Part shown: piece after piece, positions 1 to 46,024 of the stretch
Layout of the letters: every line of letters begins with the position of its first letter
Position numbering within the stretch: position 1 is the stretch's first letter
Assembly (NCBI GenBank): GCA_000004695.1
Contig: CM000150.2
Coordinates: 96,001-160,000, forward strand
Length of the DNA stretch: 64,000 nt
From: Dictyostelium discoideum
Taxonomy: Eukaryota
Direction of reading: 5' to 3'
Made by a program: the position numbers and the translations under genes
The notes under the pieces: model-generated
The model's database searches: none
What the model saw: only the letters and a program-made list of their open reading frames with translations
What the model was told of the DNA's origin: nothing

Positions 1-163
1 TTGGTGTTGAAATGTCCATTTACATCATAAAATTGTTTATAAGAACGGTAATATGCAAGACAAAATGGACATATATTTTTATGCATAATATAATGAATAA
101 TAATATTTTTAAAATTCTTTAATTTTTCTCTGCAATTAATGCATGACATGTTATTTAAATTCA
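1..163 (-). CDS. N-terminal fragment (runs off window start) of a multicopy Cys-rich / C2H2-like zinc-finger protein family; ATG at 161-163; reverse complement of 62505-62665
   Basis: Reverse complement encodes MNLNN(I/M)SCINCREKLKNFKNIIIHYIMHKNICPFC..., near-identical to the N-termini at 62505 and 58825. Confidence 0.6.
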
Positions 164-179
164 TTTTGTTTGCTGGCTG

Positions 180-894
180 GAAATTAAAAATAATATTTTT
201 TTTTTTTTTTTCCTCGAGTTTTTACGTTTTTTTTTTTTTTTTTTTTTCATTTTATTCAAATTTTAGCATTTTAGCAAGTAGATATATGATTTAGTACTTA
301 GAATTTTATATTTAGAGGGATATACCCCATTTTCAAAAAATGACCGGGAACCTATGACCCTGTCTATACCTTTTTCTTTTTAAAATATTAAAAAAAAAAA
401 CTATAAAATCTGCCCAATTTATTGTAAAACTACACTAATGCAATAATATACATGTGCACTCGTTAATTGTTTATTAATTATAAAAAATAAAAAATAAAAA
501 ATCTTTTTTTATATGTATGTTTATACTTATAATATAAATATGAAAAACAAATAATTAAATTTTTTTTTTTTTTTTTTTGATATTTTTCGCTTTTTGAAAT
601 GAAAAGTAAAATTTAAAATAACATAATATAAAACCCAAGGCAATTGAAACACTTATTTATTATTAATTAATAAAAATAATAATAATAGAATTCAATTGCC
701 ACTGAAACAAATAAATAAAGAATTAAAATTACTTTGGTTATCTTTTTAGTTTTTTTTTTTTTTTAATTTTCATAATTTTTTTTTTTTTCTTTTATTTTCT
801 TATTTTTTTTTTTTTTTTAATAAATTTGAAATAAATAGTGTAAAAATTGATTTGAAATGTATTTAAAATGCATTTAAAATGTATTTTAAAAAAT
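180..894. repeat. Inverted copy of the upstream region found at 60866-62504, lacking the TIR element present at 61472-62373 (the empty site)
   Basis: Reverse-complement identity by eye, including poly-A/T runs; the TIR element and its TA duplication are absent here. Confidence 0.6.
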
Positions 895-1135
895 ATAATT
901 AATAAAAGCTTAAAAAAGGATTAATAAGTAATTTTAAATTACATTAAAAATAACTTTTTTAAATTTATTATAAAGTGATTAAAACATTATTTAAAAACCG
1001 CTTTATAATAAATTTAAAAGGTCATTTTTAATGTAATTTTAAATGACCTTAAAAATATCTTTAAAATTACCTTTTTAAAAAGCAAATTTTAAGCCAATTT
1101 AAAGTTGATTTAATGGTGTAATTTTCATCGCTGTG
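895..1135 (-). mobile_element. Fragment of TIR hairpin element (variant terminus ...CATCGCTGTG at 1135); homolog of the 59728-59995 palindrome arm
   Basis: Sequence identity to the 59740-59990 region; terminal CGCTGTG motif. Confidence 0.5.
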
Positions 1136-2600
1136 TGGAAAGTTTACTTCCTGTTCTTCTGAAAACGGTTGTTGGTACCGTTGGCAGATTTGGTATTGTT
1201 GCTACCTGATGCAACATTACTTGGTGATCCATTGAAGTTGTTAGATCGGCCATTACTCCCACTACTGGATTTATTATCGCTACTGTTTCCTGTAGTGTTA
1301 TTACCACTTGGGTTAACTAATTTCTTGACATTGGGCTTGGAATGATAATTCAATTTTAACAATGATTGTTTAGCTTCGTTGTTCTTTCTGATTGACTTGG
1401 CTAGCTTTCTTACACGTTCAGTTTCAGTTTCATCAAAAATCTTTGGTGTATCCTTGATCTTAATTGGTAAGAGTACTTCAGAACCATAGATTTCTTTAGC
1501 GATGTTGTTACGAAGGACACGACTAAGCGATGCTTGAGCATTAACAACTAAGACGATTGCTCTCTGAGTTAAGTAACTAATAAGTTCTACATCGACATTA
1601 GAGCTATCAGATGATAAGATACTTGACATGAGAAGCAAAGGTTTCAAGCTATCGTTGATTCGCTTTTCAACAATCAACAAGTCAGTATCATTGTTCTTGA
1701 CGTTGGGTGATACAGTAATACCTTCAGGTGTACCGAATGGAGCGAAATTCACTTGGAAGTTAGATGGAAAGTTGAATACTTTATTCAATTCGGATATCTC
1801 ATCTTTCTTGAGGATTCATTCTTCTTCGACGACATTGTTACTTGATTCATCTTCACTTTGTTCATTCTCAGTGTCAGAGTCATCATGAGAAGGTTGGCTA
1901 CGTGAATTGGTATTAGATGAGAACATAGGTTCTTTCATGAATCTTGTTAAGGCTAAGGAAAGGTTGTTGATTTGATCCTCCATTGATTTCATTCTTAAAT
2001 CAAAGGATTCAGCGCTATTAGAGGTAGAGGTACTACCACTAGAGGCTTCATTATTATTAACAGTGGTAGACATATTTTATTGTTGATATCTAAAATTATA
2101 ATATGAGAAAAATAATAATATTAAAAATTAATAAAGAGAAATAATTATTTGTATAAAATTTGTGTGTGTGTGTATCTTAAATATATATAGGAGGAATTCC
2201 CAAATAAAATAAATCAAATTGTTTTAGTTTTTTGTGCCACTATTTATACGTTTTTATTTTCTTAAAAATTTCTCAAAACTCAAAAAAATAAGTGTTTTCG
2301 ACCCTTCACAACTTTGTGCATTGTGTCGGTTCGGAATTTTTATGTTTTTCGACCTTGCGCAATGATCGCGTCATTGTGCCGGTTCGAAATTTTTACTTTT
2401 CTTCGAAAATTTTTTATTCTTCGAATGTTCTAGAACATTCTAAAAAATTATCTTAAATATTTGGGATCGCGTCATTGTGCCGGTTCGAAATTTTTACTTT
2501 TCTTCGAAAATTTTTTATTCTTCGAATGTTCTAGAACATTCTAAAAAATTATCTTAAATATTTGGGAAATTAAAATAAATAAATGTTATTCATAATATAT
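1136..2600 (-). mobile_element. DIRS-type retrotransposon copy a: 5' ITR (2076-2600, with an internal ~115-bp tandem duplication) plus ORF1, truncated at 1136
   Basis: ORF1 protein nearly identical to other copies; ITR core sequence (gtgccggttcgaaattttt...gaatgttctagaacattc). Confidence 0.85.
1144..2073 (-). pseudogene. DIRS ORF1 (gag-like), split into two frames around 1790-1816
   Basis: ORF track entries 1816-2073 and 1144-1788 together match the 335-aa ORF1 of intact copies. Confidence 0.8.
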
Positions 2601-2858
2601 ATATGATAATATAAACACCGTCCAATAGCTCGTTAATGGATATAATTCTTTCGTGGAACGTTTTAATGTGCGGGTGTTTCCGCGCCAATGACGGCTAGCT
2701 GGTGGTCGCTTTTTGTAATAACAAACAAGATTGAACAGAGATATCATCATTAGCGATCAACTTAAATAAATAGTCGACAGTCTGGGGAGTAGTGGGCATT
2801 TCTGGATCGATAAGGTAAGCGTGACGATTATTTTAAATGGTTTCGCCTAAGCCCTTAA

Positions 2859-3108
2859 CTACTGTAGCAAAGCACGTTTGAAATATAAATTAAATACCAC
2901 AACTAGAACGTTAGGGTTACGTATAGCATACTCAATTAACCAGCGAGTTTTCCCAGTTTGACGTGAGCCACTGAAGCCAATTGTAAACAACTCTCGTAAA
3001 TGACATGCCTTAGTACCGCCAAGATTATTAGCAGCGCTACGCATTATTAATCGCAATACTTTTCTCAAGTTCTTGAACTATCGCATCATAATCAATTGTA
3101 GACGTCAT
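2859..3108 (-). pseudogene. Terminase-like P-loop ATPase gene fragment (Walker A GFSGSRQTGKT); frame broken relative to the paralog at 29994-30140
   Basis: SRQxGKT Walker-A motif of the type seen in phage large-terminase ATPases; RBS tgaggtaaaaaaatcATG; the paralog has an uninterrupted N-terminus MTSTTTIDYDAIEKSIAINNERSAANNLGGTKACQLRELFTIGLSGSR. Confidence 0.45.
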
Positions 3109-3120
3109 GATTTTTTTACC

Positions 3121-3288
3121 TCATTTATTTAAGTGGTTGTATGAACTCACAGGGTTATAGTCCTCATAAACAGGAAGTAGTAGACCAGGTGCATTAGGCA
3201 TTGTTATTAATACACGCTGCCCACGCACATAAGGTTGGTTGTTAACATATTTAAAATCAGTTGCCACATAGCCTTTTGGAATTTCCAT
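3121..3288 (-). CDS. Small phage-like gene (55 aa, MEIPKGYVATDFKYVNNQPYVRGQRVLITMPNAPGLL...); its stop overlaps the RBS of the downstream terminase-like gene
   Basis: RBS aagagga 9 nt upstream of ATG; conserved paralog at about 30158-30327. Confidence 0.5.
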   Translation of the reverse strand: MEIPKGYVATDFKYVNNQPYVRGQRVLITMPNAPGLLLPVYEDYNPVSSYNHLNK

Positions 3289-3549
3289 GGTAAACTAATC
3301 CTCTTAATAGGGGACCGATGGCGGGTTGACCGTCAGACTTCTACAACACCCAACCACGTAATATCGGAGTGCTTCTGTCATTGTTATTTTATTTTTAGAT
3401 GCTACGCGGTTGATTGTGGTTTACTTACACCAAAGTGTAAGCGTCGGTTATTTGCTGGCATACTTTCAGCCACGTCCCAAGTCTCCAATTCACCGCCTTC
3501 CTGCTATTAATGGTGCCTAATGACGGACATTCATCTCAAAATAAAACCA

Positions 3550-3585
3550 GGAGGGGTAAAACCCTCCTATATACTAATCTTACGG
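3550..3585. terminator. Bidirectional intrinsic terminator-like hairpin (AGGAGGGgtaaaaCCCTCCT flanked by A-run and T-run)
   Basis: GC stem with U-tract on both strands; repeated in the paralog at 30572-30606. Confidence 0.5.
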
Positions 3586-3889
3586 ACGTGGTGATATCGA
3601 ATACCACATTCTGTAATTTGGATCATGCTGGGTGTTATTTAATGTTTTGGCTATTGCTATAACCGACCGAGCTACTGTGTTTCCACAGAAATGACTCGAA
3701 CCATCGACCCACAGCGTGTATATAGTGAGCTGGTGGTTTAACCTCCCAAGGGCGGTGTTCGACTATTCGTCAAACGAAGACAAGCTTTTTAATTTAATTA
3801 AACTACCACACCATCTTCAATTTCGATTTTGGTAGAAGAGTTAGATTCAGTTAATCAATGTTGGCTTCGAAATCCAGAATCTCTTTTTC

Positions 3890-4078
3890 CTACTGCTTGA
3901 TTACTTTGCTGATCTCCAGCGGCTGATAACGTTCGATAACTGGATTAACGAACACAGCAATGGAAGCTTCATCGGCTTTCTTAGTACCGTTGAATGCTTC
4001 GGTGCGCGCGGTATTTTCACGCTGGTCAAAATTGGAGTTAGCGGTAACGTTGTGACGAGATATCGATTCGTAGTTCAC
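3890..4078 (-). CDS. Hypothetical phage-like protein (62 aa)
   Basis: ORF in the GC-rich island on the same strand as its neighbours; no recognisable motif. Confidence 0.3.
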   Translation of the reverse strand: MNYESISRHNVTANSNFDQRENTARTEAFNGTKKADEASIAVFVNPVIERYQPLEISKVIKQ

Positions 4079-4130
4079 TTTCTAAGCTTTGACAATATCG
4101 CGTTTCTCGCCTAATGCATTATGTGCATGT

Positions 4131-4761
4131 ACAGCAAAGAAAAATCCACATTTAAAGCAAATTTAAAGCAAAGTTGATTTAAATTGGATTTAAATTGAAT
4201 TTAAAGCCGGGTTTAAAAAATTCATTTTCAAGGTAATTTTTAAGATAATTTTAAGATATTTAAAAATGCCTTTAAAATTTATTTTAAAATAATTTTAAAG
4301 AGGATTTAAAGTTGATTTAAAGTAGATTTAAAGTGAATTAAAATTTCCTTTAAATATAAATTTAAGGTTTTTAATAAAAAACATCTAATTTTAGATCAAA
4401 AAAATGGGGATAAAATATTCTATCATTTTTAAATTATCATCAAAGCAATCAAATGGTGTAATGGTTGATGAGACTACCCTTTGATTGATGAGACTACCCT
4501 TTTGGTAAATTTTCAAAAATTTCAAAAAAAAATTTTATAAAATTTATCCGTTAAATAACGGCTTCGAACTCCGGACCTCGCTTTTAAAGCCATTAAAAAG
4601 CTAATTCCTAAGGTAATTATAAAGGTAATTTATAAGGTGGTTTTAAAGTAACCTTAAAAATTACCTTTAAAATTACCTTAAAAATTGCTTTTGTACAGGA
4701 CTTTAAATTCGCTTTAAATTAAATTTAAATTTGCTTTAAAGGTGGTTTTTCTTTCACTGTG
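4131..4761 (+). mobile_element. TIR hairpin element (B-type end ...A-type end; left terminus 2 bp short), inserted into the 3' end of a phage-like gene
   Basis: Termini ACAGCAAAGAAAAATCCAC ... GGTGGTTTTTCTTTCACTGTG; internal tRNA-like/hairpin core. Confidence 0.7.
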
Positions 4762-5026
4762 TAGTGTATTCTTTGCCAGCTACGGTAATAAGCGTACTAG
4801 CGTTGGACAATATCACTTTAGCAAGGATATCTTCACGCACACGAATGATATCTTGTAAACCATGGTAGTTTTCTTTGATCGCATCAGAAACCGCCCCAAC
4901 GGAATCATTGAAACCAGCTTCTTGGGCGAATTCATCAGTACCGCGAGTTAGTGAAATAAGCATCAGACCGTTGGACATGGATTTAACCGTGGCCAATGTA
5001 CGGGTAATTGAAATCTTAGTAGCCAT
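4754..5026 (-). CDS. Phage-like gene (MATKISITRTLATVKSMSNGLML...) truncated at its 3' end by the TIR element; the last codons read into the TIR
   Basis: RBS aaaggaaaaggaaatataATG; the ORF stop lies inside the CACTGTG terminus. Confidence 0.45.
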   Translation of the reverse strand: MATKISITRTLATVKSMSNGLMLISLTRGTDEFAQEAGFNDSVGAVSDAIKENYHGLQDIIRVREDILAKVILSNASTLITVAGKEYTTQ

Positions 5027-5157
5027 TATATTTCCTTTTCCTTTATACGTTATAGACAGAGTGCCGAACCCTGTTTTAGAGAACGGTAGAGGCTTTCACT
5101 CTTAGGCTTTCATCGATCCCCGTTCGTGACCGTTTAGCGATTTCTTTAGATCTTAAT

Positions 5158-5247
5158 TGGTAGAGAATTAGAGATTCGAACTCTAGGAGCGGTTTCCCGC
5201 CCGACGGTTTTTAAGACCGTTACCTTGAACCACTCGGACAATTCTCC
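5158..5247 (-). tRNA. Class-II tRNA-Leu (anticodon UAA), long variable arm, discriminator A73, genomically encoded CCA end
   Basis: Manual fold: acceptor GGAGAAT/ATTCTCT, anticodon stem ACGGT/ACCGT with loop CUUAAAA, T-arm TAGAG-TTCGAAT-CTCTA, 3' ACCA; close to the bacterial tRNA-Ser/Leu body GGAAGTGTGGCCGAGCGGTTGAAGG... Confidence 0.7.
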
Positions 5248-5336
5248 AATTGGGTGACACCCATTAGAATTTCACGTAGCTCTATAGCTATTACAGTCAA
5301 TACTAACACTTCACAAAAAGGCCTGGTTAACCCCTA

Positions 5337-6014
5337 CTGATTGAACTTAGGTTGTCTTAGAGTTCCTACCAGGAAAACTGCAACTGATATCATTGTTTGG
5401 TGATTACAAAAAAGACCAGTGTTATTGGCTGGTCTTTTTGAGTTATACGATACCGTTCTCTTTACGATAACGGAATATTTTTGATCTATCGATATTAAGC
5501 ATTTCTGCAATTACTTAATCGCTATTACCTCACCAAGCAGTTCGATAATCATGGCAATATGTTCTGGGTTAAGTTGTGTCTTTTGGCTTTTACTTAATGC
5601 TGATCTACCAACACAGCGAAGAAAAAACCACCTTTAAATTCGCTTTAAATTAAATTTAAATTTGCTTTAAAGTCCCGAATTAAAGCAATTTTAAAGGTAA
5701 TTTTAAAGCGAATTTAAAGGTGGTTTTTTCTTCGCTGTGTTGGTAGATCAGCATTAAGTAAAAGCCAAAAGACACAACTTAACCCAGAACATATTGCCAT
5801 GATTATCGAACTGCTTGGTGAGGTAATAGCGATTAAGTAATTGCAGAAATGCTTAATATCGATAGATCAAAAATATTCCGTTATCGTAAAGAGAACGGTA
5901 TCGTATAACTCAAAAAGACCAGCCAATAACACTGGTCTTTTTTGTAATCACCAAACAATGATATCAGTTGCAGTTTTCCTGGTAGGAACTCTAAGACAAC
6001 CTAAGTTCAATCAG
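5337..6014. repeat. Near-perfect ~275-bp-arm palindrome of phage-like sequence centred on a 128-bp mini TIR element
   Basis: 5337-5611 is the reverse complement of 5740-6014, read directly. Confidence 0.85.
5612..5739. mobile_element. Mini TIR element (internally deleted, two termini back to back) at the palindrome centre
   Basis: CACAGCGAAGAAAAAACCACCTTTAAA ... TTTAAAGGTGGTTTTTTCTTCGCTGTG. Confidence 0.7.
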
Positions 6015-6644
6015 TAAAACACTAAAAATTACCTTTAAAATTACCTTTAAAATTACCTTTTTAATCGCTTTAAAAGCGAGGTCCTGAGTTCGAAGCCGTT
6101 ATTTAACGGATAAATTTTTTAAAATTTTTTTTTTTAATTTTTCAAAAATTACCAAAAGGGATTCGATCCCCCGACCCTCTATCAAAGGGTAGTCTCATCA
6201 ACCATTACACCATTTGATTGCTTTGATGAAAATTTAAAAATGATAGAATATTTTATCCCCATTTTTTTGTTCTAAAATTAGATCTTTTTTATTAAAAACC
6301 TTAAATTTATGTTTAAAGGAAATTTAAATTCACTTTAAATCTACTTTAAATCTACTTTAAATCCTATTTAAAATTAATTTAAAATAAATTTTAAAGGTAT
6401 TTTTAAATATCATAAAAATTATCTTAAAAATTACCTTAAAAATCACCTTTAAAATCACCTTTAAAATCACCTTTATAAATTTATTTTAAAGCAAATTTTA
6501 AAGGCATTTTTAAATATCTTAAAAATTACCTTAAAAATTACCTTAAAAATGAATTTTTTAAACGCGGCTTTAAATTCAATTTAAATCCAATTTAAATCAA
6601 CTTTTCTTTAAATTTGCTTTAAAGGTGCATTTTTCTTTGCTGTG
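6015..6644 (-). mobile_element. TIR hairpin element, truncated on the palindrome side; B-type terminus at 6624-6644
   Basis: Internal modules and tRNA-like core in reverse orientation; terminus GGTGCATTTTTCTTTGCTGTG. Confidence 0.7.
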
Positions 6645-6693
6645 AAGAGATCCAGTTCTACCATTCTGGCGATGCTTGCTTGCCGATCAGTCA

Positions 6694-6810
6694 TTAACGA
6701 ATCTTCTTCAGTAACTGAGTACGAAGAATTGGATTAGCATCTCGCTTGGCTTTATCGGCCGCTGCAGTGCGTTTTGTACAGTTACCAAAATCAAAAGATT
6801 TACATGGCAT
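6694..6810 (-). CDS. Small basic protein (38 aa, MPCKSFDFGNCTKRTAAADKAKRDANPILRTQLLKKIR) with a strong GGAGG-type SD; paralog at 47855-47971
   Basis: Two copies about 90% identical, both with an RBS; hairpin after the stop in the 47972 copy. Confidence 0.5.
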   Translation of the reverse strand: MPCKSFDFGNCTKRTAAADKAKRDANPILRTQLLKKIR

Positions 6811-7054
6811 GACATCCCTCCATTGACTTAAAAGAAAAATAAGGGGATAACATGTGTTCTGGTCAAGCCATACCCTTAATGAGGGTGTTAATCTTCGTCA
6901 TAATAATTTTGATCTTTTGGAGTACTTGCATGCAGAGAGGTTATGGGGACCATCCCTACACATTATATCCGGTACTGTGTAAAACTTTACATATCAATAG
7001 ATCAAAAATAAGAGGATGTAGTACATCCCCTCTTTCAATTAAGGCAACATGACC

Positions 7055-7319
7055 CTAGTCAAGTAGCGCATTGTGTCACGTAATAGGGATACACGCCCGC
7101 GATTAAGATCAACAATACCGTAGTTCAAATGAATAGAATCGTTATATATACCTTCTGCGTTAAGCCTGAAGTTCAAACGCGAACGGAGCGTAGTATGAAC
7201 CTGACCTTCACTTCTGAAAATGTGTACTCGTTATCTAACGCCACATCAAAGGCAGGCCAACCTGTTAATGCTGTTGATCTTATCCCAATTACGTGAAACA
7301 ATGCGCTACTTGGCTAAGG
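7055..7319. repeat. ~30-bp inverted repeat (CAAGTAGCGCATTGTKTCACGTAAT) flanking about 200 bp in phage-like island C
   Basis: 7055-7084 is the reverse complement of 7288-7319. Confidence 0.5.
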
Positions 7320-7384
7320 TCATGGTGGCCAATACAACTCCACCTGTAAACCTTTCACCAACCACTTGTCATTGACTAATAACT

Positions 7385-7706
7385 AGTCAGTTTCGTTGTT
7401 CTTGACGTTGGGTGATACAGTAATACCTTCAGGTGTACCGAATGGAGCGACATTCACTTGGAAGTTAGATGGAAAATTGAATATTTTATTCAATTCGGAT
7501 ATCTCATCTTTCTTGAGGATACATTCTTATTTGACGAGTAAACCTTGATTGTTTACCATATGTTTGTACTGACCAAGTAAGGTATCGGATAATTGATAAT
7601 CGGTTGGAACATCGACATTGTTACTTGATTCATCTTCACTTTGTTCATTCTCAGTGTCAGAGTCATTATGAGAAGGTTGGCTACGTGAATTGGTATTAGA
7701 TGAGAA
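7385..7706 (-). mobile_element. DIRS ORF1 fragment with an internal deletion, abutting phage-like DNA at a small palindrome (TGACTAATAACTAGTCA)
   Basis: Matches ORF1 N-terminal coding sequence of other copies. Confidence 0.75.
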
Positions 7707-8222
7707 TTAATAATTTAATTTATTAAATTACATTTATATTAAATATATATAAATATATTATGAATAAAATTTATTTATATTATCATATATATATATATAT
7801 TATGAATAACATTTATTTATTTGAATTTCCCAAATATTTAAGATAATTTTTTAGAATGTTCTAGAACATTCGAAGAATAAAAAATTTTCGAAAGAAAAGT
7901 AAAAATTTCGAACCGGCACAATGACGCGATCATTGCGCAAGGTCGAAAAACTGAAAAATTCCGAACCGACACTATGCACAAAGTTGTGAAGGGTCGAAAA
8001 CTCTTATTTTTTTGAGTTTTGCTAAATTTTTAAGAAAATAAAAACGTATAAATAGTGGCACTAAAAACTAAAACAATTTGATTTATTTTATTTGGGAATT
8101 CCTCCTATATATATTTAAGATACACACACACACAAATTTTATACAAATAATTATTTCTCTTTATTAATTTTTAATATTATTATTTTTTCTCATATTATAA
8201 TTTTAGATATCAACAATAAAAT

Positions 8223-9230
8223 ATGTCTACCACTGTTAATAATAATGATGCCTCTAGTAGTAGTACCTCTGCCTCTAATAGCGCTGAATCCTTTGATTTA
8301 AGAATGAAATCAATGGAGGATCAAATCAACAACCTTTCCTTAGCCTTTACAAGATTCATGAAAGAACCTATGTTCTCTTCTAATACCAACTCACGTAGCC
8401 AACCTTCTCATGATAACTCTGACACCGAGAATGAACAAAGTGAAGATGAATCAAGTAACAATGTCGATGTTCCAACCGATTATCAATTATCCGATACCTT
8501 ACTTGGTCAGTACAAACATATGGTAAACAATAAAGGTTTACTCGTCGAAGAAGAATGTATCCTCAAGAAAGATGAGATATCCGAATTGAATAAAGTATTC
8601 AACTTTCCATCTAACTTCCAAGTGAATGTCGCTCCATTCGGTACACCTGAAGGTATTACTGTATCATCCAACGTCAAGAACAATGATACTGATTTGTTGA
8701 TTGTCGAAAAGCGAATCAACGATAGCTTGAAACCTTTGCTTCTCATGTCAAGTATGTTATCATCTGATAGCTCTAATGTCGATGTAGAACTTATTAGTTA
8801 CTTAACTCAGAGTGCAATCGTCTTAGCCGTTAACGCTCAAGCATCGCTTAGTCGTGTCCGTCGTAACAACATCGCTAAAGAAATCTATGGTTCTGAAGTA
8901 CTCTTACCAATTAAGATCAAGGATACACCAAAGATGTTTGATGAAACTGAAACTGAACGTGTAAGAAAGCTAGCCAAGTCAATCAGAAAGAACAACGAAG
9001 CAAAACAATCATTGTTAAAATTGAATTATCATTCCAAGCCCAATGTCAAGAAATCAGTTAACTCAAGTGGTAATAACACTACAGGAAACAGTAGTAATAG
9101 TAAATCCAGTAGTGGGAGTAATGGCCGATCTAACAACTTCAATGGATCACCAAGTAATGTTGCATCAGGTAGCAACAATACCAAGTCTGCCAACGGTACC
9201 AACAACCGTTTTCAGAAGAACAAGAAGTAA
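8223..9230 (+). CDS. DIRS ORF1 (gag-like, 335 aa)
   Basis: Full-length ORF conserved across copies. Confidence 0.8.
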   Translation: MSTTVNNNDASSSSTSASNSAESFDLRMKSMEDQINNLSLAFTRFMKEPMFSSNTNSRSQPSHDNSDTENEQSEDESSNNVDVPTDYQLSDTLLGQYKHMVNNKGLLVEEECILKKDEISELNKVFNFPSNFQVNVAPFGTPEGITVSSNVKNNDTDLLIVEKRINDSLKPLLLMSSMLSSDSSNVDVELISYLTQSAIVLAVNAQASLSRVRRNNIAKEIYGSEVLLPIKIKDTPKMFDETETERVRKLAKSIRKNNEAKQSLLKLNYHSKPNVKKSVNSSGNNTTGNSSNSKSSSGSNGRSNNFNGSPSNVASGSNNTKSANGTNNRFQKNKK

Positions 9231-12144
9231 ACTTACCAGTAGGTGGACGTCTGTTCCACCACAAACAAGTTTGGAAAGAATTGGGTCTTCCAAACTTTTG
9301 TCAAGAGGTCGTAAATGGATTAAAAGTCCATCTACTTCCAAACTTCAAGCCGATGCCAAACCCAATTCCGATTTCAATTCCAGAGGGTCCAAAATCAGAT
9401 TGCATCACAAAGGAAGTACAAGACTTGTTATTAGACGATGCCATCGAACAAGTACTTCCAAACCGTTATTCAAAGCGCGTTTTTTACTCCAACGTGTTTA
9501 CGGTTCCAAAACCTGGAACGAATCTACATCGTCCAGTTCTCGATTTAAAAAGGTTAAACACTTACATCAACAACCAATCATTCAAGATGGAAGGAATCAA
9601 GAATCTACCATCAATGGTCAAACAAGGTTATTACATGGTAAAACTCGATATCAAGAAAGCTTACCTCCACGTTTTAGTAGATCCGCAATACAGAGACTTA
9701 TTTCGCTTCGTGTGGAAAGGTTCGCACTACCGTTGGAAAACAATGCCGTTCGGGTTATCGACAGCTCCTCGTATCTTTACAATGTTGTTAAGACCTGTAC
9801 TTCGAATGTTGAGAGATATCAACGTATCCGTCATCGCATACTTGGACGATCTATTAATCGTCGGTTCAACAAAAGAAGAATGTTTATCCAACCTCAAAAA
9901 GACAATGGACTTACTTGTCAAACTAGGTTTCAAGTTAAATCTAGAAAAGAGTGTTCTCGAACCAACTCAATCAATTACATTTCTCGGATTACAAATCGAT
10001 TCGGTATCAATGAAGCTTCTTGTTCCCAAAGAAAAGAAGAAAAGTGTCATCAAGGAAATAAGAAACTTTTTAAAACTAGATTGTTGCTCCCCAAGAAAGC
10101 TTGCTGGTTTAAAAGGAAAGCTAATCGCACTGAAAGATGCAGTCATCCCTTTCAGACTTTACACTCGTCGAACAAACAAGTTTCACTCTCAGTGTCTGAC
10201 TCTAGCCAATGGAGATTGGGATCAATCATTCCCCATTCCTCAAGAGGTCAAGTCAGAGATTTCACATTGGTTAACAGTTCTAAACCAATGGAATGGAAAA
10301 GAAATCAGTCTGTTTCCAAGTTACGACTATGTTCTTACAACCGATGCCTCGGAATCAGGTGCAGGTGCCACACTCAAGAAAGGAAACAAGGTAATCAAAA
10401 CTTGGTCATTCCAGTGGTCAACAACTCAATCAAACATGTCGTCAAATCGTCGAGAAATGCTCGCGCTGCTAATGGCCTATCAAGCGCTATGTCAGAAACT
10501 GAACAACTGCAAGCTGAAGATCCAAACCGACAATACTACCACTCTCTCATACATCAATCGCCAGGGTGGTCAGATACAAGATCTCTCAGTTCTGTTCGAA
10601 CAACTTTGGAAACAATGCCTCAAGAAGAAAGTGAACTTGATTGGAGAGCATATTCCAGGATTCTTCAATGTAAAAGCCGACCACCTCAGTCGTCTTTCAG
10701 AGATGAATCACAAATCATCGACCAGAGTAATCAAGAGTTACATCTGGCAACTGAAGAAGGAAGTGTTCAATCGCATCCAACTTCAATTCGGTCAAATACA
10801 GATGGATCTGTTCGCATCTCACCTCAACCATCAAACGAACAACTACTCAACAATAAGAATGAATGCACTCAACCTCGATTGGAGTCAATGGAAGCAATGT
10901 CTGGCCTTTCCACCACCCATTCTTTTGCCTTCTATCCTGGAGAAGATGAACTCATCCAGTTCGAAGAAGGTTTCTATAATACTGATCTTCCCAATCTGGA
11001 GATCAGCAACTTGGTATCCGATGATTCAAGCACAAGTTCCTCGTCATCATCGTCACATGTTTCCTCAAGTACTGGGAACATTCCAAGAAGTATTGACCAA
11101 ACAATCAGTAGAGTCGATACCAATCCAGATTCAACAACGTTGGAAGCTGGGGATTATTCAACTTTCCAATCTCATGTAATGTCCTTCGCTCGTACAACAA
11201 ATACAAAAACAGCTGAGCTGTTAATGAAGTCATGGGAACCTTCAACTCTCAAAGTATATAGCTCCAGTTATACAAGATTCCGCAATTTCTGTACTTTGAA
11301 CTCTTTGAATCCAGCAAACATTACCTTAGTTGTTTTCATGGATTATCTTACACATCTATTCAAACACAAACCTCCGTTAGCTTTCTCAACTATTAACGGT
11401 CATCGATCTATGTTGAATCAGTTGTTACTCCTTAGGAATCAAACTGATATTGTTAATGATCCATTCATTACAAGAATTATGACTGGTATTCACAAGTTGC
11501 GTCCTTCATCTGCAAAGTATAAAGAGATATGGGATGCAAATCAAGTATTCAAGCACTTATCTACTATCAAAGTCATCCCCAAGTACACATACACTGCGCT
11601 ATTAAACAAGACACTTGTACTCTGTAAAATGTTTGGTTTAGCAAGATCATCAGACTTGGTGAAGTGGTCGTTCAAAGGTCTCATTATTACTCCTGACTCA
11701 ATCAAAGGTCCCGTTATTAATGCTAAAGAACAAAGAAGTGGTATTGTTTCAATCTTAGAATTAACATCGTTAGATGATACTAACTCTCAAGTGTGCCCTG
11801 TTCGCCACCTTGCAACATACCTTAGAGCATCTAAAGGAAGAAGAAAGCCCCATTCGGGTGACTCTGTCTTTATTAAGAATGAAGGTGAACCGCTCCAAGT
11901 TAATGATATTAATTCAATTGTACTATCAACACTCTCAAAGTCAGGTATTGATATTGTCAAGTTCAAATCTCACTCTACCCGTTCCGCTATGGCTTCTCTG
12001 CTGTTGTCCAATAACGTTCCGTTCCACGTTGTCAAAAAGATGGGTCGTTGGAAATCAAACGATACTGTAGATACCTTCTACGATAAAAGAATCATTGGTG
12101 AAAAATCTGGTGGTTTCTTAAATACTGTCGTCCAAATTTCATAA
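9043..12144 (+). CDS. DIRS long overlapping ORF; the C-terminal ~320 aa is a tyrosine recombinase (R..HxxR..Y), the N-terminal ~700 codons overlap the RT ORF in another frame
   Basis: RSSDL, KSHSTRSAMAS and GRWKSNDTVDTFY catalytic-residue context; the long overlap is kept open in every near-full-length copy. Confidence 0.8.
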   Translation: MSRNQLTQVVITLQETVVIVNPVVGVMADLTTSMDHQVMLHQVATIPSLPTVPTTVFRRTRSKLTSRWTSVPPQTSLERIGSSKLLSRGRKWIKSPSTSKLQADAKPNSDFNSRGSKIRLHHKGSTRLVIRRCHRTSTSKPLFKARFLLQRVYGSKTWNESTSSSSRFKKVKHLHQQPIIQDGRNQESTINGQTRLLHGKTRYQESLPPRFSRSAIQRLISLRVERFALPLENNAVRVIDSSSYLYNVVKTCTSNVERYQRIRHRILGRSINRRFNKRRMFIQPQKDNGLTCQTRFQVKSRKECSRTNSINYISRITNRFGINEASCSQRKEEKCHQGNKKLFKTRLLLPKKACWFKRKANRTERCSHPFQTLHSSNKQVSLSVSDSSQWRLGSIIPHSSRGQVRDFTLVNSSKPMEWKRNQSVSKLRLCSYNRCLGIRCRCHTQERKQGNQNLVIPVVNNSIKHVVKSSRNARAANGLSSAMSETEQLQAEDPNRQYYHSLIHQSPGWSDTRSLSSVRTTLETMPQEESELDWRAYSRILQCKSRPPQSSFRDESQIIDQSNQELHLATEEGSVQSHPTSIRSNTDGSVRISPQPSNEQLLNNKNECTQPRLESMEAMSGLSTTHSFAFYPGEDELIQFEEGFYNTDLPNLEISNLVSDDSSTSSSSSSSHVSSSTGNIPRSIDQTISRVDTNPDSTTLEAGDYSTFQSHVMSFARTTNTKTAELLMKSWEPSTLKVYSSSYTRFRNFCTLNSLNPANITLVVFMDYLTHLFKHKPPLAFSTINGHRSMLNQLLLLRNQTDIVNDPFITRIMTGIHKLRPSSAKYKEIWDANQVFKHLSTIKVIPKYTYTALLNKTLVLCKMFGLARSSDLVKWSFKGLIITPDSIKGPVINAKEQRSGIVSILELTSLDDTNSQVCPVRHLATYLRASKGRRKPHSGDSVFIKNEGEPLQVNDINSIVLSTLSKSGIDIVKFKSHSTRSAMASLLLSNNVPFHVVKKMGRWKSNDTVDTFYDKRIIGEKSGGFLNTVVQIS
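9281..11179 (+). CDS. DIRS reverse transcriptase / RNase H ORF (632 aa)
   Basis: YLDDLLIVG (YxDD), RNase H TDASESGAGA, NVKADHLSR motif. Confidence 0.85.
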   Translation: MGLPNFCQEVVNGLKVHLLPNFKPMPNPIPISIPEGPKSDCITKEVQDLLLDDAIEQVLPNRYSKRVFYSNVFTVPKPGTNLHRPVLDLKRLNTYINNQSFKMEGIKNLPSMVKQGYYMVKLDIKKAYLHVLVDPQYRDLFRFVWKGSHYRWKTMPFGLSTAPRIFTMLLRPVLRMLRDINVSVIAYLDDLLIVGSTKEECLSNLKKTMDLLVKLGFKLNLEKSVLEPTQSITFLGLQIDSVSMKLLVPKEKKKSVIKEIRNFLKLDCCSPRKLAGLKGKLIALKDAVIPFRLYTRRTNKFHSQCLTLANGDWDQSFPIPQEVKSEISHWLTVLNQWNGKEISLFPSYDYVLTTDASESGAGATLKKGNKVIKTWSFQWSTTQSNMSSNRREMLALLMAYQALCQKLNNCKLKIQTDNTTTLSYINRQGGQIQDLSVLFEQLWKQCLKKKVNLIGEHIPGFFNVKADHLSRLSEMNHKSSTRVIKSYIWQLKKEVFNRIQLQFGQIQMDLFASHLNHQTNNYSTIRMNALNLDWSQWKQCLAFPPPILLPSILEKMNSSSSKKVSIILIFPIWRSATWYPMIQAQVPRHHRHMFPQVLGTFQEVLTKQSVESIPIQIQQRWKLGIIQLSNLM

Positions 12145-12600
12145 TATATATATATATATGATAATATAAATTAAAAATTTAATTTATTAAATTATATTTT
12201 ATATTAAATATATATATATATATTAGTCCCATCCCACCCGCCCTTAGTCGGAATTCCATAAATCAAATTGTTTTAGTTTTTAGTGCCACTATTTATACGT
12301 TTTTATTTTCTTAAAAATTTAGCAAAACTCAAAAAAATAAGAGTTTTCGACCCTTCACAACTTTGTGCATAGTGTCGGTTCGGAATTTTTCAGTTTTTCG
12401 ACCTTGCGCAATGATCGCGTCATTGTGCCGGTTCGAAATTTTTACTTTTCTTTCGAAAATTTTTTATTCTTCGAATGTTCTAGAACATTCTAAAAAATTA
12501 TCTTAAATATTTGGGAAATTCAAATAAATAAATGTTATTCATAATATATATATATATATTTAATATAAAATATAATTTAATAAATTAAATTTTTAATTTA

Positions 12601-13263
12601 TTTGAACGACAGTATCAATGAAAATACCACCAGATTTTTCACCAATGATTCTTTTATCGTAGAAAGTATCTACAGTATCGTTTGATTTCCAGCGACCCAT
12701 CTTCTTGACAACATGGAACAGAACGTTATTGAACAACAGCAGAGAAGCCATAGCGGAACGGGTAGAGTGAGATTTGAACTTTCCAGTGTCAATACCTGAG
12801 CTTGAGAGTGTTGATAATACAATTGAACTAATATCATTAACTTGGAGCGGTTCACCCTCATTCTTAATAAAGACAGAGTCACCCGAATGGGGCTTTCTTC
12901 TTCCTTTAGAGGCTCTAAGGTATGTTGCAAGGTGGCGAACAGGACATACTTGAGAGTTAGTATCATCTAACGATGTTAATTATAAGATTGAAACAACACC
13001 ACTTCTTTGTTCTTTAGCATTGATAACTAGACCTTTGATTGAGTCAGTACTAATAATGAGACCTTTGAATGACCACTTCACCAAGTCTGATGATCTTGAT
13101 AAACCAAACATTTTACAGAGTACAAGTGTCTTGTTTAATAGCGCAGTGTATATGTACTTGGGGATAACTTTGATAGTAGACAAGTGCTTGGATACTTGAT
13201 TTGCACCCCATATCTCTTTATACTTTGCAGATGAAGGGAGCAACTTGTGAATACCAGTCATAA
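12601..13263 (-). mobile_element. DIRS copy c: 3' fragment of the recombinase ORF (frame-broken), tail-to-tail with copy b and sharing its ITR
   Basis: ORFs 12980-13261 and 12670-12966 match recombinase region. Confidence 0.8.
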
Positions 13264-14344
13264 TTATATATCGTGGTATTTGTAAATTATAAGGTAATTG
13301 GTATCATCAATTTGAATTGGTATAACTATATTTAGAATACTATCATACGTAATATAATTTATTTGAAAGAAAATGGTATTGGTCACCAACATATTTGTCA
13401 AAATAATTTAATAATATTGAATGTTTTACTAGTTATCATCCATTTCAATCATTGATATTGAATTGATAATACCTGACCATCTACCTGAAAGTTCATTATA
13501 TGATGCAACTTCAACTGCATCACCAACATTGTATATTTCTTTATTATTTTTAATTGATGAGTGAAAAGTTAAATTTTTATAATTTTGAAATAATGAATCT
13601 AATTTAATTTTTATGTTATCTAAATTATCTGGATTTTTTATTTTATAATTAATGCTGTACTTTCAGGTTCAATACTTTTTAATTTAAAAAATTTCACCAT
13701 GTTTAATTTGGTAACCCTTTCATATTGTTCATCCCTATTATTTGTATTATTATTTAAATAATTTTTAATTCTTGATAATTGTGCTTCAAAAGTTTCAGCT
13801 TAAGTGTATTTTGGTGCACCCCAATTTTTTATATAGATTGGATAATATAACAACAAGTGGAAATTCGTTATTTCTGTTTCAGTAATTAAATTTACTTTTG
13901 CATTAAACGATTCAATTAATACTTGAAGTGAAATTAAATCATTTTCATCAAAGGAGTCACTATATAATTTAAAACATATAGTTACTAATTGTTCCATTAT
14001 TAAAAATCATCATTTGATATTTGATTTTTAATTGATATTAAAAGGTAATATAATATTGATCTATTCTCTCTTCCTTTCCTTGTTTTATTTGCAAATAGTG
14101 AAATTGATGGTTTTGGTTTATTATCTATTATTTTTGCATTTTTTAAATTATTTAAAAAATTTTCAATTTTTTTATTTTTATCAAAAATGTAATTTAAACA
14201 CCTTTGTGCGACACCTAATAAAATATGTCTGGTTGTGTTTTTAAATAATTAATGGACAAGGGTTCGACACCCTCTGTCCACACCTTTGATACCAATATCT
14301 TTTGCTTTTTTTTCCCATACTTTTTTTAATTCTATATCAGCATT
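13264..14344 (-). pseudogene. 3' part of a Cys-rich gene-family copy (continues from 17147-17460 across the DIRS-d insertion); frame broken
   Basis: Reverse complement matches 63860-64000 and downstream; GVDRGW(V/C)... region. Confidence 0.55.
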
Positions 14345-17146
14345 TATATTATCATATATATATATATATTATGAATAACATTTATTTATTTGAATTTCCC
14401 AAATATTTAAGATAATTTTTTAGAATGTTCTAGAAGAATAAAAAATTTTCGAAAGAAAAGTAAAAATTTCGAACCGGCACAATGACGCGATAATTGTTTA
14501 AGGTCGAAAAACTGAAAAATTCCGAACCGACACTATGCACAAAGTTGTGAAGGGTCGAAAACACTTATTTTTTTGAGTTTTGCGAAATTTTTAAGAAATA
14601 AAAACGTATAAATAGTGGCACTAAAAACTAAAAACAATTTGATTTATTTTATTTGGGAATTCCTCCTATATATATTTAAGATACACACACACACAAATTT
14701 TATACAAATAATTATTTCTCTTTATTAATTTTTAATATTATTATTTTTCTCATATTATATTTTTAGATATCAACAATAAAATATGTCTACCACTGTTAAT
14801 AATAATGAAGCCTCTAGTAGCAATACCTCTGCCTCTAATAGCGCTGAATCCTTTGATTTAAGAATGAAATCAATGGAGGTTCAAATCAACAACCTTTCCT
14901 TAGCCTTTACAAGATTCATGAAAGAACCTATGTTCTCTTCTAATACCAACTCACGTAGCCCACCTTCTCATGATCACTCTGACACCGAGAATGAACAAAG
15001 TGAAGATGAATCAAGTAACAATGTCGATGTTCCAACCGATTATCAATTATCCGATACCTTACTTGGTCAGGAATGTATCCTCAAGAAAGATGAGATATCC
15101 GAATTGAATAAAGTATTCAACTTTCCATCTAACTTCCAAGTGAACGTCGCTCCATTCGGTACACCTGAAGGTATTACTGTATCATCCAACGTCAAGAACA
15201 ATGATACTGACTTGTTGATTGTCGAAAAGCGAATCAACGATAGCTTAAAACCTTTGCTTCTCATGTCAAGTATGTTATCATCTGATAGCTCTAATGTCGA
15301 TGTAGAACTTATTAGTTACTTAACTCAGAGTGCAATCGTCTTAGCCTTTAATGCTCAAGCATCGCTTAGTCGTGTCCGTCGTAACAACATCGCTAAAGAA
15401 ATCTATGGTTCTGAAGTACTCTTACCAATTAAGATCAAGGATACACCAAAGATGTTTGATGAAACTGAAACTGAACGTGTAAGAAAACTAGCCAAGTCAA
15501 TCAGAAAGAACAACGAAGCTAAACAATCATTGTTAAAATTGAATTATCATTCCAAGTCAAATGTCAAGAAATCAGTTAACTCAAGTGGTAATAACACTAC
15601 AGGAAACAGTAGTAATAGTAAATCCAGTAGTGGGAGTAATGGCCGATCTAACAACTTCAATGGATCACCAAGTAATGTTGCATCAGGTAGCAACAATACC
15701 AAGTCTGTTTCCAAGTTACGACTATGTTCTTACAACCGATGCCTCGGAATCAGGTGCAGGTGCCACACTCAAGAAAGGAAACAAGGTAATCAAAACTTGG
15801 TCATTCCAATGGTCAACAACTCAATCAAATATGTAGTCAAATCGTCGAGAAATGCTCGCGCTGCTGATGGCCTATCAAGCGCTATGTCGGAAACTGAACA
15901 ACTGCAAGCTGAAGATTCAAACCGACAACACTACCACTCTCTCTTACATCAATCGCCAGGGTGGTCAAATACAAGATCTCTCAGTTCTGTTCGAACAACT
16001 TTGGAAACAATGCCTCAAGAAGAAAGTGAACTTGATTGGAGAGCATATTCCAGGATTCTTCAATGTAAAAGCCGACCACCTCAGCCGTCTTTCAGAGATG
16101 AATCACAAATCATCGTCCAGAGTAATCAAGAGTTACAACTGGCAACTGAAGAAGGAAGTGTTCAATCGCATCCAACTTCAATTCGGTCAAATACAGATGG
16201 ATCTGTTCGCATCTCACCTCAACCATCAAACGAACAACTACTCAACAATCAGAATGAATGCACTCCACCTCGATTGGAGTCAATGGAAGCAATGTCTAGC
16301 CTTCCCACCACCCATTCTTTTGCCTTCTATCCTGGAGAAGATGAACTCATCCAGTTCGAAGAAGGTTTCTATAATACTGATCTTCCCAATCTGGAGATCA
16401 GCAACTTGGTATCCGATGATTCAAGCACAAGTTCCTCGTCATCATCTTCACATGTTTCCTCAAGTACTGGGAACATTCCAAGAAGTATTGACCAAACAAT
16501 CAGTAGAGTCGATACCAATCCAGATTCAACAACGTTGGAAGCTGGGGATTATTCAACTTTCCAATCTCATGTAATGTCCTTCGCTCGTACAACAAATACA
16601 AAAACAGCTGAGCTGTTAATGAAGTCATGGGAACCTTCAACTCTCAAAGTATATAGCTCCAGTTATACAAGATTCCACAATTTCTGTACTTTGAACTCTT
16701 TGAATCCAGCCAACATTACCTTAGTTGTTTTCATGGATTATCTTACACATCTGTTCAAACACAAACCTCCGTTAGCCTTCTCAACAATTAACGGTCCCAA
16801 ATAAAATAAATCAAATTGTTTTTAGTTTTTAGTGCCACTATTTATACGTTTTTATTTTCTTAAAAATTTCGCAAAACTCAAAAAAATAAGAGTTTTCGAC
16901 CCTTCACAACTTTGTGCATAGTGTCGGTTCGGAATTTTTCAGTTTTTCGACCTTAAACAATTATCGCGTCATTGTGCCGGTTCGAAATTTTTACTTTTCT
17001 TTCGAAAATTTTTTATTCTTCGAATGTTCTAGAACATTCTAAAAAATTATCTTAAATATTTGGGAAATTCAAATAAATAAATGTTATTCATAATATATAT
17101 ATATATATTTAATATAAAATATAATTTAATAAATTAAATTTTTAAT
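14345..17146 (+). mobile_element. DIRS copy d, inserted without target duplication into the host gene-family copy; two internal deletions; right end is an inverted L-ITR
   Basis: Host sequence is exactly contiguous across the insertion (ctatatcagcattt | aattcagcataa). Confidence 0.8.
14783..16804 (+). pseudogene. 673-aa fusion ORF from deletion: ORF1 - RT overlap frame - N-terminal recombinase
   Basis: Comparison with copy b shows about a 1.1-kb deletion and loss of the recombinase catalytic half. Confidence 0.75.
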
Positions 17147-17460: not shown

Positions 17461-18188
17461 CACAGGGGCGAAAAAAAATACTTAAAAGCATCTTTAAAGT
17501 AGGAACGTAAATAGTACTATTATAAAGTATACTTAATAAGTATATTTATTAAGTATACTTATTAAGTGTACTTATTAAGTATATTTATTAAGTATATTTA
17601 TTAAGTATACTTATTAAGTATATTTATTAAGTATATTTATTAAATATATTTATTAAATATATTTATTAAGTATATTTATTAAGTATATTTAATAAGTATA
17701 TTTATTAAGTATATTTATTAAGTATATTTATTAAGCATAATTATTAAGTATAATTATAAAATATAATTATTAATTAAAATTATTAAGTATAATTAATAAG
17801 GGTAATTATAAAGTTCACTTAATAAGAATACTTAAAAAGTTAAAAATAACATTTTATAATAATAATTTAAAATAAATTTAAAAAAAAAAAAAAAAAAAAC
17901 TAAAAAAAAAAAAAAGAATTAATTAAAAAGTAAAGTATTTGAAATCAGAAATTTTTTTTATTTAATTGTGAAAATTCTAAGGGTATTAATATGTTGACTT
18001 TAACAAGGGTCATACAACATTTATAATTGACTAATTTGAAAAGCAGAACTTTATTTCCATTATTATTTGTACCAAAAGCATTTACTTTACAGGTTCAAAT
18101 AAAAGAAGGGACAACCTAAAATATAATTGTTTTTTAAATTATATTAATCTCTTTATTTTATATTATTATTTTTTTTTTTCTTTGAACC
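17461..18188 (+). mobile_element. Second TIR family, left arm: terminus CACAGGGGCGAAAAAAAATACTTAAAAGCATCTTTAAAGTAGGAACG, satellite, ~300-bp unique part
   Basis: Reverse complement of 47170-47768. Confidence 0.7.
17528..17810. repeat. 13-bp tandem satellite (TTAAGTATAYTTA)n inside the second TIR family arm
   Basis: More than 20 tandem units read directly; mirrored at 47400-47700. Confidence 0.8.
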
Positions 18189-44419: not shown

Positions 44420-45121
44420 CACAGCAAAGAAAAATGCACCTTTAAAGCAAATTTAAAGTAAAGTTGATTTAAATTGGATTTAAATTGAATTTAAAGCCGC
44501 GTTTAAAAAATTCATTTTTAAGGTAATTTTTAAGGTAATTTTTAAGATATTTAAAAATGCCTTTAAAATTTGCTTAAAAATTTATTTTAAAGGTAATTTT
44601 AAAGGTGATTTTTAAGGTAATTTTTAAAATGATTTTTAAGATATTTAAAAATACCTTTAAAATTTATTTTAAATTAATTTTAAATAGGATTTAAAGTAGA
44701 TTTAAAGTAGATTTAAAGTGAATTTAAATTTCCTTAATATATAAATTTAAGGTTTTTAATAAAAAAGATCTAATTATAGATAAAAAAAATGGGGATAAAA
44801 TATTCTATCATTTTTAAATTTTCATCAAAGCAATCAAATGGTCGGGGGATCGAATCCCTTTTGGTAATTTTTGAAAAAATTAAAAAAAAAAAATTTAAAA
44901 AATTTATCCGTTAAATAACGGCTTCGAACTCAGGACCTCGCTTTTAAAGCGATTAAAAAGGTAATTTTAAAGGTAATTTTAAAGGTAATTTTAAAGGTGA
45001 TTTTAAAGTAACCTTAAAAATTACCTTTCAAATTACCTTTAAAATTGCTTTAATTCAGGACTTTAAAGCAAATTTAAATTTAATTTAAAGCGAATTTAAA
45101 GGTGGTTTTTTCTTTGCTGTG
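44420..45121 (+). mobile_element. TIR hairpin element (B-end to A-end), complete
   Basis: CACAGCAAAGAAAAATGCACC ... GGTGGTTTTTTCTTTGCTGTG. Confidence 0.75.
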
Positions 45122-45470: not shown

Positions 45471-46024
45471 TAAGATGATTTTTAAGGTAATTTTTAAGAT
45501 AATTTTTAAGATATTTAAAAAATACCTTTAAAATTTATTTTAAATTAATTTTAAATAGGATTTAAAGTAGATTTAAAGTATATTTAAAGTGAATTTAAAT
45601 TTCCTTTAAGTATAAATTTAAGGTTTTTAATTAAAAAGATCCATTTTTAGATCAAAAAAATGGGGATAAAATATTCTACCATATTTAAATTTTCATCAAA
45701 GCAATCAAATGGTGTAATGGTTGATGAGACTATCCTTTGATAGAGGGTCGGGGGATCGAATCCCTTTTGGTAATTTTTGAGAAATTAAAAAAAAAAATTT
45801 TAAAAAATTTATCCGTTAAATAACGGCTTCGAACCCAGGACCTCGCTTTTAAAGCGATTAAAAAGGTAATTTTAAAGGTAATTTTAAAGGTAATTTTTAA
45901 GGTGATTTTAAAGTAACCTTAAAAATTACCTTTAAAATTACCTTAAAAATTGCTTTAATTCAGGACTTTAAATTCGCTTTAAATTAAATTTAAATTTGCT
46001 TTAAAGGTGGTTTTTTCTTCGCTG
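45471..46024 (+). mobile_element. TIR hairpin element, 5'-truncated; its A-end terminus ends 2 bp from the stop codon of the adjacent gene paralog
   Basis: ...GGTGGTTTTTTCTTCGCTGTG at 46004-46024. Confidence 0.7.

Follow-up and report, generated by a model that had tools for sequence, protein, structure and literature searches.

In the work of Butler and Yao and of Tanaka et al., palindromes reportedly arise from a short inverted repeat lying near a break, both in Tetrahymena rDNA and in mammalian gene amplification. Inverted chimeras are also said to form during multiple displacement amplification (an observation attributed to Lasken and Stockwell in 2007), and Sanger sequencing has well-known problems with stops at hairpins. 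A scheme in which a quasi-palindrome gives rise to template switching or snap-back synthesis is established (PMC7202029, PMC7954356, PMC8794818, PMC5728401, PMC11724301). DDT elements make up about 20% of the centromeres of Dictyostelium discoideum (PMC2665215), and DDT-B has been reported to carry an A/B-box motif, a target of the TRE5-A retrotransposon (PMC9012585). Here we describe two long palindromes, P1 and P2, each at the end of a transposon of probable DDT type, within a stretch of 64,000 nt of D. discoideum DNA that was analysed as a whole (the window).

The window is a D. discoideum centromeric repeat cluster, not phage or bacterial DNA. Its background is very AT-rich, and it carries several retrotransposon copies with overlapping gag, RT/RNase H/Dam-methylase and tyrosine recombinase ORFs, which is the architecture of DIRS-1, as well as a gypsy-type element encoding RT, RNase H and integrase. 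The mixture of DIRS, DDT and Skipper elements agrees with that of published D. discoideum centromeres (PMC2665215). An ORF at 57529–58134 is 100% identical to DDB_G0267348 of D. discoideum AX4, and from this one protein match we infer that the window is part of the chromosome 1 centromere of the AX4 reference. For chromosome 1, that reference contains a centromere described as "manually reconstructed", made from short-insert Sanger reads because clones were limited to short-insert libraries; primer walking and the joining of read pairs and contigs were used for the later centromeres, those of chromosomes 2 and 3 (PMC2665215). One DIRS-1 copy (7773–12598) is 100% identical over 4826 bp to positions 9551–14376 of another locus, L002 (on the chromosome-scale record CM142509.1, 6.43 Mb), with different flanks; the identity suggests very recent transposition or gene conversion, and apart from this copy L002 shares nothing with the window. 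AT-rich, low-complexity palindromic arrays at 17503–17832 and 47389–47711 (arms of 100–160 nt, 71–83% complementary, no spacer) are unrelated to the terminal inverted repeat (TIR) family described below.

DNA resembling that of phiKZ-type jumbo phages is embedded in the cluster at 52779–56613, and also at 4762–5611, 6645–7373 and 2862–3077, with a GC content of 40–44% compared with about 20% in host spacer. It holds a split RNA-polymerase beta-subunit gene pair, collinear but frameshifted, that matches PHROG 3295 and 3015; one RNA-polymerase fragment has 60% protein identity to Erwinia phage Ea35-70, and a tail-fibre fragment and an unknown phage family are also included. The tail-fibre region is decayed across transposon copy E7, and the tRNA-Leu(UAA) next to P1 is the only tRNA found in the window. 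The two loci of a second assembly introduced below (L001 and L005) contain the phage-like DNA, as do Logan contigs of at least eight sequencing runs (L006), there at 98.9% identity. Given its presence in independent data sets, it appears to be a real, old, decaying phage-to-amoeba transfer, and it is a more remarkable feature of the window than the palindromes; a literature search for a link between jumbo-phage DNA and Dictyostelium found no paper. An earlier reading of the window from its letters alone (the sequence-only reading) had described the arms of P1 as phage-like. This fits the neighbourhood of P1, with its tail-fibre PHROG match and bacterial-type tRNA-Leu, but not the arms themselves, which have no database match: blastn of the P1 flank returned no match in phages and E. 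coli genomes, and the tRNA alone in plasmids.

Both of the palindromes noticed in that reading exist, far above chance. The longest perfect inverted arms are 315 nt in P1 and 130 nt in P2, compared with at most 12 nt in shuffled controls (20 shuffles per region), and P1, P2 and the 171-nt arms of transposon copy E6 are the longest inverted repeats in the window at separations below 400 nt. The arms of about 275 bp ascribed to P1 correspond to flank portions of 277 nt (5335–5611 and 5740–6016) that are 100% complementary, on either side of a 128-bp centre (5612–5739) with the same 27-nt terminus at both ends in opposite orientation. The claim that P2 has the same central unit was also correct (97.7% identity between the two centres), as was the claim that its flank is inverted for more than 100 bp, since 60086–60208 is the exact reverse complement of 59897–60019. 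The start given for the second palindrome, 59728, was mistaken; at this position, which lies outside P2, is the tip of another, outer element.

The window holds 19 copies of the 27-nt terminus (CACAGCRAAGAAAAAACCACCTTTAAA), with 0 expected by chance. The termini pair into a family of elements of about 0.57–0.9 kb with at least seven copies in the window (E1 to E7, Table 1) and two types of end, A (..AAAAAACCACC) and B (..AAAAATGCACC). Inside the elements are tRNA-like B-box motifs and TTTAAA repeats spaced 11–12 bp apart. A MAFFT alignment of the seven copies places E1 and E2, which carry P1 and P2, collinear with the other five from A tip to B tip, the sole departure being an extra block after A-end position 97. 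Direct 2-bp target duplications flank four copies (AA at E1 and E4, TA at E2 and E3). The complete elements are a non-autonomous TIR transposon of about 0.75 kb. The family probably belongs to the DDT group, a name applied on the strength of described features, namely the numbers of termini and copies, the 2-bp duplications and the internal B-box motifs.

Several further observations concern this family. The tRNA-like fragments with B-box-like motifs (GAGTTCGAAGCC and GGGATTCGATCCCCC) lie at 6076–6100 and 6160–6185 in E1 and have equivalents in all copies. E2 is nested in another DDT-like element with a B-type tip (59726–59988 and from 60866 onward; a paralogue lies at 768–1135 on the minus strand), which fits the reported habit of DDT elements of inserting into their own kind (PMC2665215). 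Three A ends, those of E7, of the end at 46026 and of the right end of E6, carry an inverted segment that amounts to inversion of a spacer between short inverted repeats; this inversion is found in both assemblies and so is a genuine in vivo inverted-repeat rearrangement. E6 is itself a palindromic derivative, also present in L001, with A-type ends on both sides and no B end, its 171-nt arms being 91% complementary around 234 nt.

Table 1. Coordinates of the features discussed in the text (positions in the window; positions within an element are counted from its A tip).
Feature	Position	Strand	Details
P1 inverted-repeat arms	5335–5660 and 5691–6016		326 nt, 98% complementary, 30 nt between
P2 inverted-repeat arms	59876–60037 and 60068–60229		162 nt, 91% complementary
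Phage-like DNA hosting E1 and E7	4762–5611, resuming 6645 to ~7373
Tail-fibre-like ORF	4754–5026	−	PHROG match
tRNA-Leu(UAA), bacterial/phage type	5158–5247	−	~80% identical to bacterial tRNA-Leu genes
E1, complete non-autonomous TIR element	5612–6644	+	A end left, B end right; from alignment with six copies, flanks and intact allele
E1 target duplication	5610–5611 and 6645–6646		AA, direct, 2 bp
E1 natural A end, positions 1–97	5612–5708	+	same as intact allele; holds hairpin 1
E1 block template (P1 left arm)	5335–5642	+	277 nt of left flank plus first 31 nt of element
E1 inverted block	5709–6016	+	exact reverse complement of 5335–5642, 308/308 nt
E1 junction J2	6017–6022	+	2-nt overlap TA, then AAACAC vs AAATCACCT in the intact allele
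E2, complete element, same family as E1	59989–60865	+	877 bp in the window
E2 target duplication	59987–59988 and 60866–60867		TA, direct, 2 bp
E2 natural A end, positions 1–97	59989–60085	+	same as intact allele in L001
E2 inverted block	60086–60278	+	reverse complement of A-end 31–1 plus ~165–178 nt of left flank
Low-quality-looking patch	60209–60345	+	nearly all single-base deletions vs template or intact allele; spans J2 of E2
Paralogous empty site of E2	885–916	−	reads TTTTTAAGCTTTTAT-TA-ATTATATTTTTTAAA; no element, non-palindromic
E3, family copy	61472–62373	−	intact A end; reference
E4, family copy	44420–45121	−
E5, family copy	56616–57334	−
E6, family copy	58903–59472	+
E7, family copy	4130–4761	−
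Inverted A-end segment, positions ~21–61	4701–4741; 45966–46006; 59412–59452		in E7; in the end at 46026; in the right end of E6

A second D. discoideum assembly, GCA_054883475.1 (locus tags ACTFIT_), was reached via exact-protein look-ups. Its locus L001 (JBTAPE010000027.1, 7.7 kb) matches the window at 52904–60085 with one substitution, and L005 (JBTAPE010000022.1) matches 6023–15310 with zero differences and 1–5708 with one substitution and two small indel events. Across the roughly 22 kb compared there are thus 2 substitutions and 2 small indel events, and the two palindromes are the only structural differences. L005 has E1 at the site that it occupies in the window, with identical phage-like surroundings, and L001 has E2 at its TA site, each with its A end intact; E1 is 749 bp in the intact allele (L005 8667–9415) compared with 1033 bp in the window. 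The intact alleles also hold natural A-end sequence that is missing from the window, 19 nt in E1 and about 55 nt in E2. This extra sequence identifies the intact alleles as ancestral, and not as products of deletion or collapse.

The sequence-only reading had taken the 128-bp centre for a separate mini TIR element, and had suggested that palindrome centres might be its preferred targets. The unit is instead natural A-end positions 1–97 followed by an inverted copy of positions 31–1 (31 nt), its first 97 nt being the ordinary A end of the complete ~0.75-kb element, common to the five larger copies. Transposition of a 128-bp MITE into palindromes that already existed, precisely at their centres, would account for the outward-facing termini of the unit and for the near identity of its two copies, but the remaining observations make this explanation scarcely credible. 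The P1 unit has AA on its left and TT on its right, where the full element has a direct duplication; the TA/TA around the P2 unit is uninformative, as TA is self-reverse-complementary. The direct target duplication expected of a simple insertion is present at the ends of the complete elements. When 59989–60865 and one TA are removed from the window, the sequence left matches 885–916 (minus strand) at 32/32 nt, so that what the pre-insertion site lacks is the entire 877 bp of E2 and not 128 bp. Since this site is non-palindromic, insertion into a palindrome centre is refuted. In the orthologous alleles the tip is retained, and nothing but the internal inverted block is missing. Nor do free-standing copies occur: outward tip pairs 100–160 bp apart number 2 in the window, at P1 and P2, and 0 in L001–L005 (about 81 kb), loci L002, L003 and L004, from other places or assemblies, have no family termini, and the 32-nt tip pattern has no match in viral and metagenome contigs. 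The idea of a palindrome centre attracting a mini element can therefore be dropped, whether the palindromes are artefact or real, while the earlier argument that a simple insertion is inadequate to explain them is supported.

The structure of both loci is that of an exact inverted copy of adjacent sequence that has replaced original bases, over 308/308 nt in E1 and over the first 123/123 nt (60086–60208) of the ~193-nt block in E2. The proximal junction, J1, is the same in E1 and E2: position 97 is joined to the reverse complement of position 31, giving GGTAATTTTAAAGCGAATTTAAAGGTGG, with 7 nt of microhomology (TTTAAAG), where the intact A end reads GGTAATTTTAAAG-GTAATTTTTAAGGTTACTTTAAAATCACC across the same site. 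The distal junctions, J2, differ. In E1, natural positions 98–116 are lost and the element is re-entered at internal position 119, over an overlap of 2 nt; three single bases are then missing relative to the intact allele, within 12 nt, after which normal element sequence follows, and the arm itself is clean. In E2, about 55 nt of natural sequence (positions about 98–152) are lost and re-entry is at position ~165, over a 16-nt overlap (AAAATTACCTTTTTAA). The E2 block differs from its template from 60209 to ~60278 by 17 missing bases and 0 substitutions, and in the 70 nt past J2 the window departs from L001 at about half a dozen small places, most of them missing bases. All of these junctions lie off the transposon tips, and the palindrome axis falls at about position 64 inside the element. 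The ancestral state is known at both loci from L005 and L001.

Each block carries the marks of its own neighbourhood. The E2 block shares with its own left flank two private variants that are missing from a paralogue at 900–1078, and the inverted tips match the tip variant of their own element, G in E1 and A in E2. These variants indicate that each block was copied in place from its own neighbour. Old divergence was considered as a source of the deletions in the P2 arm and was rejected, given that there are no substitutions and that the private variants of the flank are present. Inheritance of the shared J1 from one ancestral palindromic tip was likewise judged unlikely, the orthologous alleles being intact and the tip variants locus-specific.

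The intact A end was folded as single-stranded DNA over a 138-nt segment. Two adjacent hairpins are predicted (−27.1 kcal/mol, z = −5.7): hairpin 1, with a robust core stem of 51–59/69–77, and hairpin 2, with a 15-bp stem of 97–111/124–138. J1 lies exactly at the 5′ foot of predicted hairpin 2 (position 97), and once hairpin 1 folds, the 3′-terminal TTTAAAG (91–97) is able to pair with CTTTAAA (32–38). Each palindrome is most likely the product of snap-back synthesis (a template switch) at one end of a complete transposon, in which the stall and the snap-back itself are reconstructed from the junctions. In the simplest mechanism the proposed steps would be as follows. A polymerase would stall at hairpin 2, and the free 3′ end (TTTAAAG) would fold back via hairpin 1 onto CTTTAAA at positions 32–38. 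It would then be extended along its own strand, through the tip and into the left flank, and would rejoin the element a few tens of nt further downstream. A stall at hairpin 2 combined with snap-back via hairpin 1 would explain why J1 is identical at two loci.

The foldback or template-switch origin that had been among the earlier proposals is thus retained, on the evidence of the exact inverted copies and the microhomology, and it can be read in two ways. We think it probable that the palindromes are a sequencing, cloning or assembly artefact of this assembly, in which snap-back would have occurred in sequencing reactions or clones and its products would have been joined to reads from the other side; the palindromes would then not belong to the genome of the living organism. 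The caution against artefacts in the sequence-only reading has held up, as both loci are without palindromes in the independent assembly. It is this absence from a near-identical assembly, together with the runs of single-base deletions at the distal junctions, that makes an artefact the most likely explanation. The low-quality signature at the novel junctions consists in P2 of the deletions in the distal arm and the differences past J2, and in P1 of the three deletions beside a clean arm. An artefact is favoured because two special events would otherwise separate genomes that differ by about 1 substitution per 11 kb, because the density of deletions is that of poor read ends, unlike the errors of cellular polymerases or divergence, because J1 is placed at a predicted polymerase stop, and because the region was manually reconstructed from short-insert clones. 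Snap-back in a reaction would run to the primer or the insert end and so would give arms of arbitrary length. A palindrome with 315-nt perfect arms should also be hard to maintain in E. coli; following Leach (in 1994), cloning of such a palindrome in standard E. coli hosts is reportedly expected to be difficult. Counting against an artefact, the right arm of P1 is a perfect, noise-free 308-nt copy, of which a single poor read is not an obvious source, and both elements re-enter the same element within 20–70 nt and with microhomology, so that two reads would have had to be merged across very small overlaps, of 2 nt in P1. Other inverted-repeat rearrangements of the family are moreover shared by the two assemblies, which shows that events of this kind take place in vivo.

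Alternatively, the snap-back or template-switch events might have taken place in living cells and have reached fixation in the sequenced strain, though not in the one behind GCA_054883475.1, a possibility that we hold only tentatively. A fork stalled at hairpin 2, or a break there repaired by foldback-primed synthesis, would have allowed the nascent 3′ end to copy its own strand via the tip into the flank and to rejoin the element by microhomology. A four-point structure that has microhomology at J1 as well as at J2, and that re-enters the same element within 20–70 nt, is the classic signature of a switch inside cells, and the perfect copy in P1 is what a very recent event predicts. The other inverted-repeat rearrangements common to both assemblies (inversion of A-end segment 22–60 in E7 and in the ends at 46026 and 59472, and the A/A element E6) point the same way, as does the finding that in E. 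coli, yeast and primates template switching lengthens inverted repeats and makes them perfect (PMC7202029, PMC8604942, PMC7954356, PMC8794818). Yet two independent events would be needed within 55 kb, in lineages whose divergence is so low, and the P2 copy has 17 single-base deletions within ~85 nt which, like the deletions after both J2, resemble read errors, at a density far above known error rates of cellular polymerases. A palindrome with such arms should also be poorly clonable, yet the reference was made from plasmid clones. It is accordingly rather doubtful that the blocks are real, independent and very recent in vivo products, which would make the double hairpin of the A end a hypermutable snap-back site. 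A transposase-driven origin was part of the earlier proposals, through hairpins of the hAT or Transib kind; RAG-type hairpins, aborted excision, and sister-chromatid or reversed-ends transposition as in maize Ac/Ds, belong with it. Both events are at a transposon end, and the subterminal TTTAAA repeats with their 11–12-bp spacing, which are likely (predicted) transposase binding sites, lie around the axis. Such an origin is nonetheless very improbable. The expected junctions would join a precise tip to other DNA, but here position 97 is joined to the reverse complement of position 31, J2 joins flank to internal position 119 or ~165 with the tip intact inside the arm, and neither novel junction is at a tip; flank hairpins would put the axis at the boundary of flank and tip, not at about position 64 inside the element. 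We give hardly any weight, finally, to the palindromes being ancestral and real, with a deletion, or their collapse while long reads were assembled, accounting for their loss from the other assembly. Palindromic DNA is unstable and may be mishandled by assemblers, but the other assembly holds the 19 nt (E1) and ~55 nt (E2) of natural sequence, matching the family consensus, which deletion or collapse of a palindrome would be unable to produce.

If the palindromes are artefacts, the reference contains two local errors, of ~284 bp (5709–6022) and ~120 bp (60086–60345), both with one shared cause, the double hairpin at the transposon end, and mining of D. discoideum for palindromes, hairpins or "MITEs" should expect similar errors. 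If they are real, stalled synthesis copies up to ~300 nt of host flank into a transposon, inside its termini. A cut-and-paste element would then have been directly observed to take up DNA from its surroundings and to form long hairpins, potential precursors of small RNAs, and this would bear on how DNA transposons acquire host fragments. The two loci would also offer a clean natural example of a long-tract template switch nucleated by a transposon end, with both the ancestral and the derived alleles known.

Among known systems, MITEs and foldback elements resemble the 128-bp unit in having inverted transposon termini and a long hairpin (−54 kcal/mol for the unit). Unlike MITEs, the unit is not inserted independently, lacks a target duplication of its own and occurs only within the full element. 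The palindromes of Tetrahymena rDNA and mammalian amplification are alike in that a short natural inverted repeat sets the axis and one flank is duplicated in inverted form; those palindromes reach the end of the molecule, whereas the arms of P1 and P2 stop after 277 or ~170 nt and the original sequence resumes. In vitro snap-back chimeras share with P1 and P2 the inverted junctions, short microhomology and hairpin-prone sequence, and likewise recur at the same site in different copies while being absent from other data on the genome, but J2 of P1 and P2 requires an extra assembly step that such chimeras alone do not provide. We know of no documented case with exactly this behaviour at the level of reads.

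Snap-back repair of the SD-MMEJ/Pol theta type (PMC5728401, PMC11724301, PMC9303309) is similar in that a 3′ end folds back on a nearby inverted repeat and primes an inverted copy, which microhomology then connects with the other side. Its inverted insertions are mostly 5–34 bp (PMC11724301), shorter than those in P1 and P2, and it is based on breaks, whereas P1 and P2 are without a documented break. The four-point or quasi-palindrome switches of E. coli, yeast and great apes (PMC7202029, PMC8604942, PMC7954356, PMC8794818) have in common with P1 and P2 that an imperfect inverted repeat nucleates the switch, that an exact reverse complement of adjacent sequence replaces bases with microhomology at both points, and that the net result is a hairpin with longer, more perfect arms. 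They copy a few to tens of nucleotides, compared with tracts of 308 and ~193 nt here, and, unlike them, the tracts of P1 and P2 run from a transposon end into flanking DNA. If real, P1 and P2 are thus a long-tract instance of a known mutational mechanism, with the twist that flanking DNA is copied into a mobile element.
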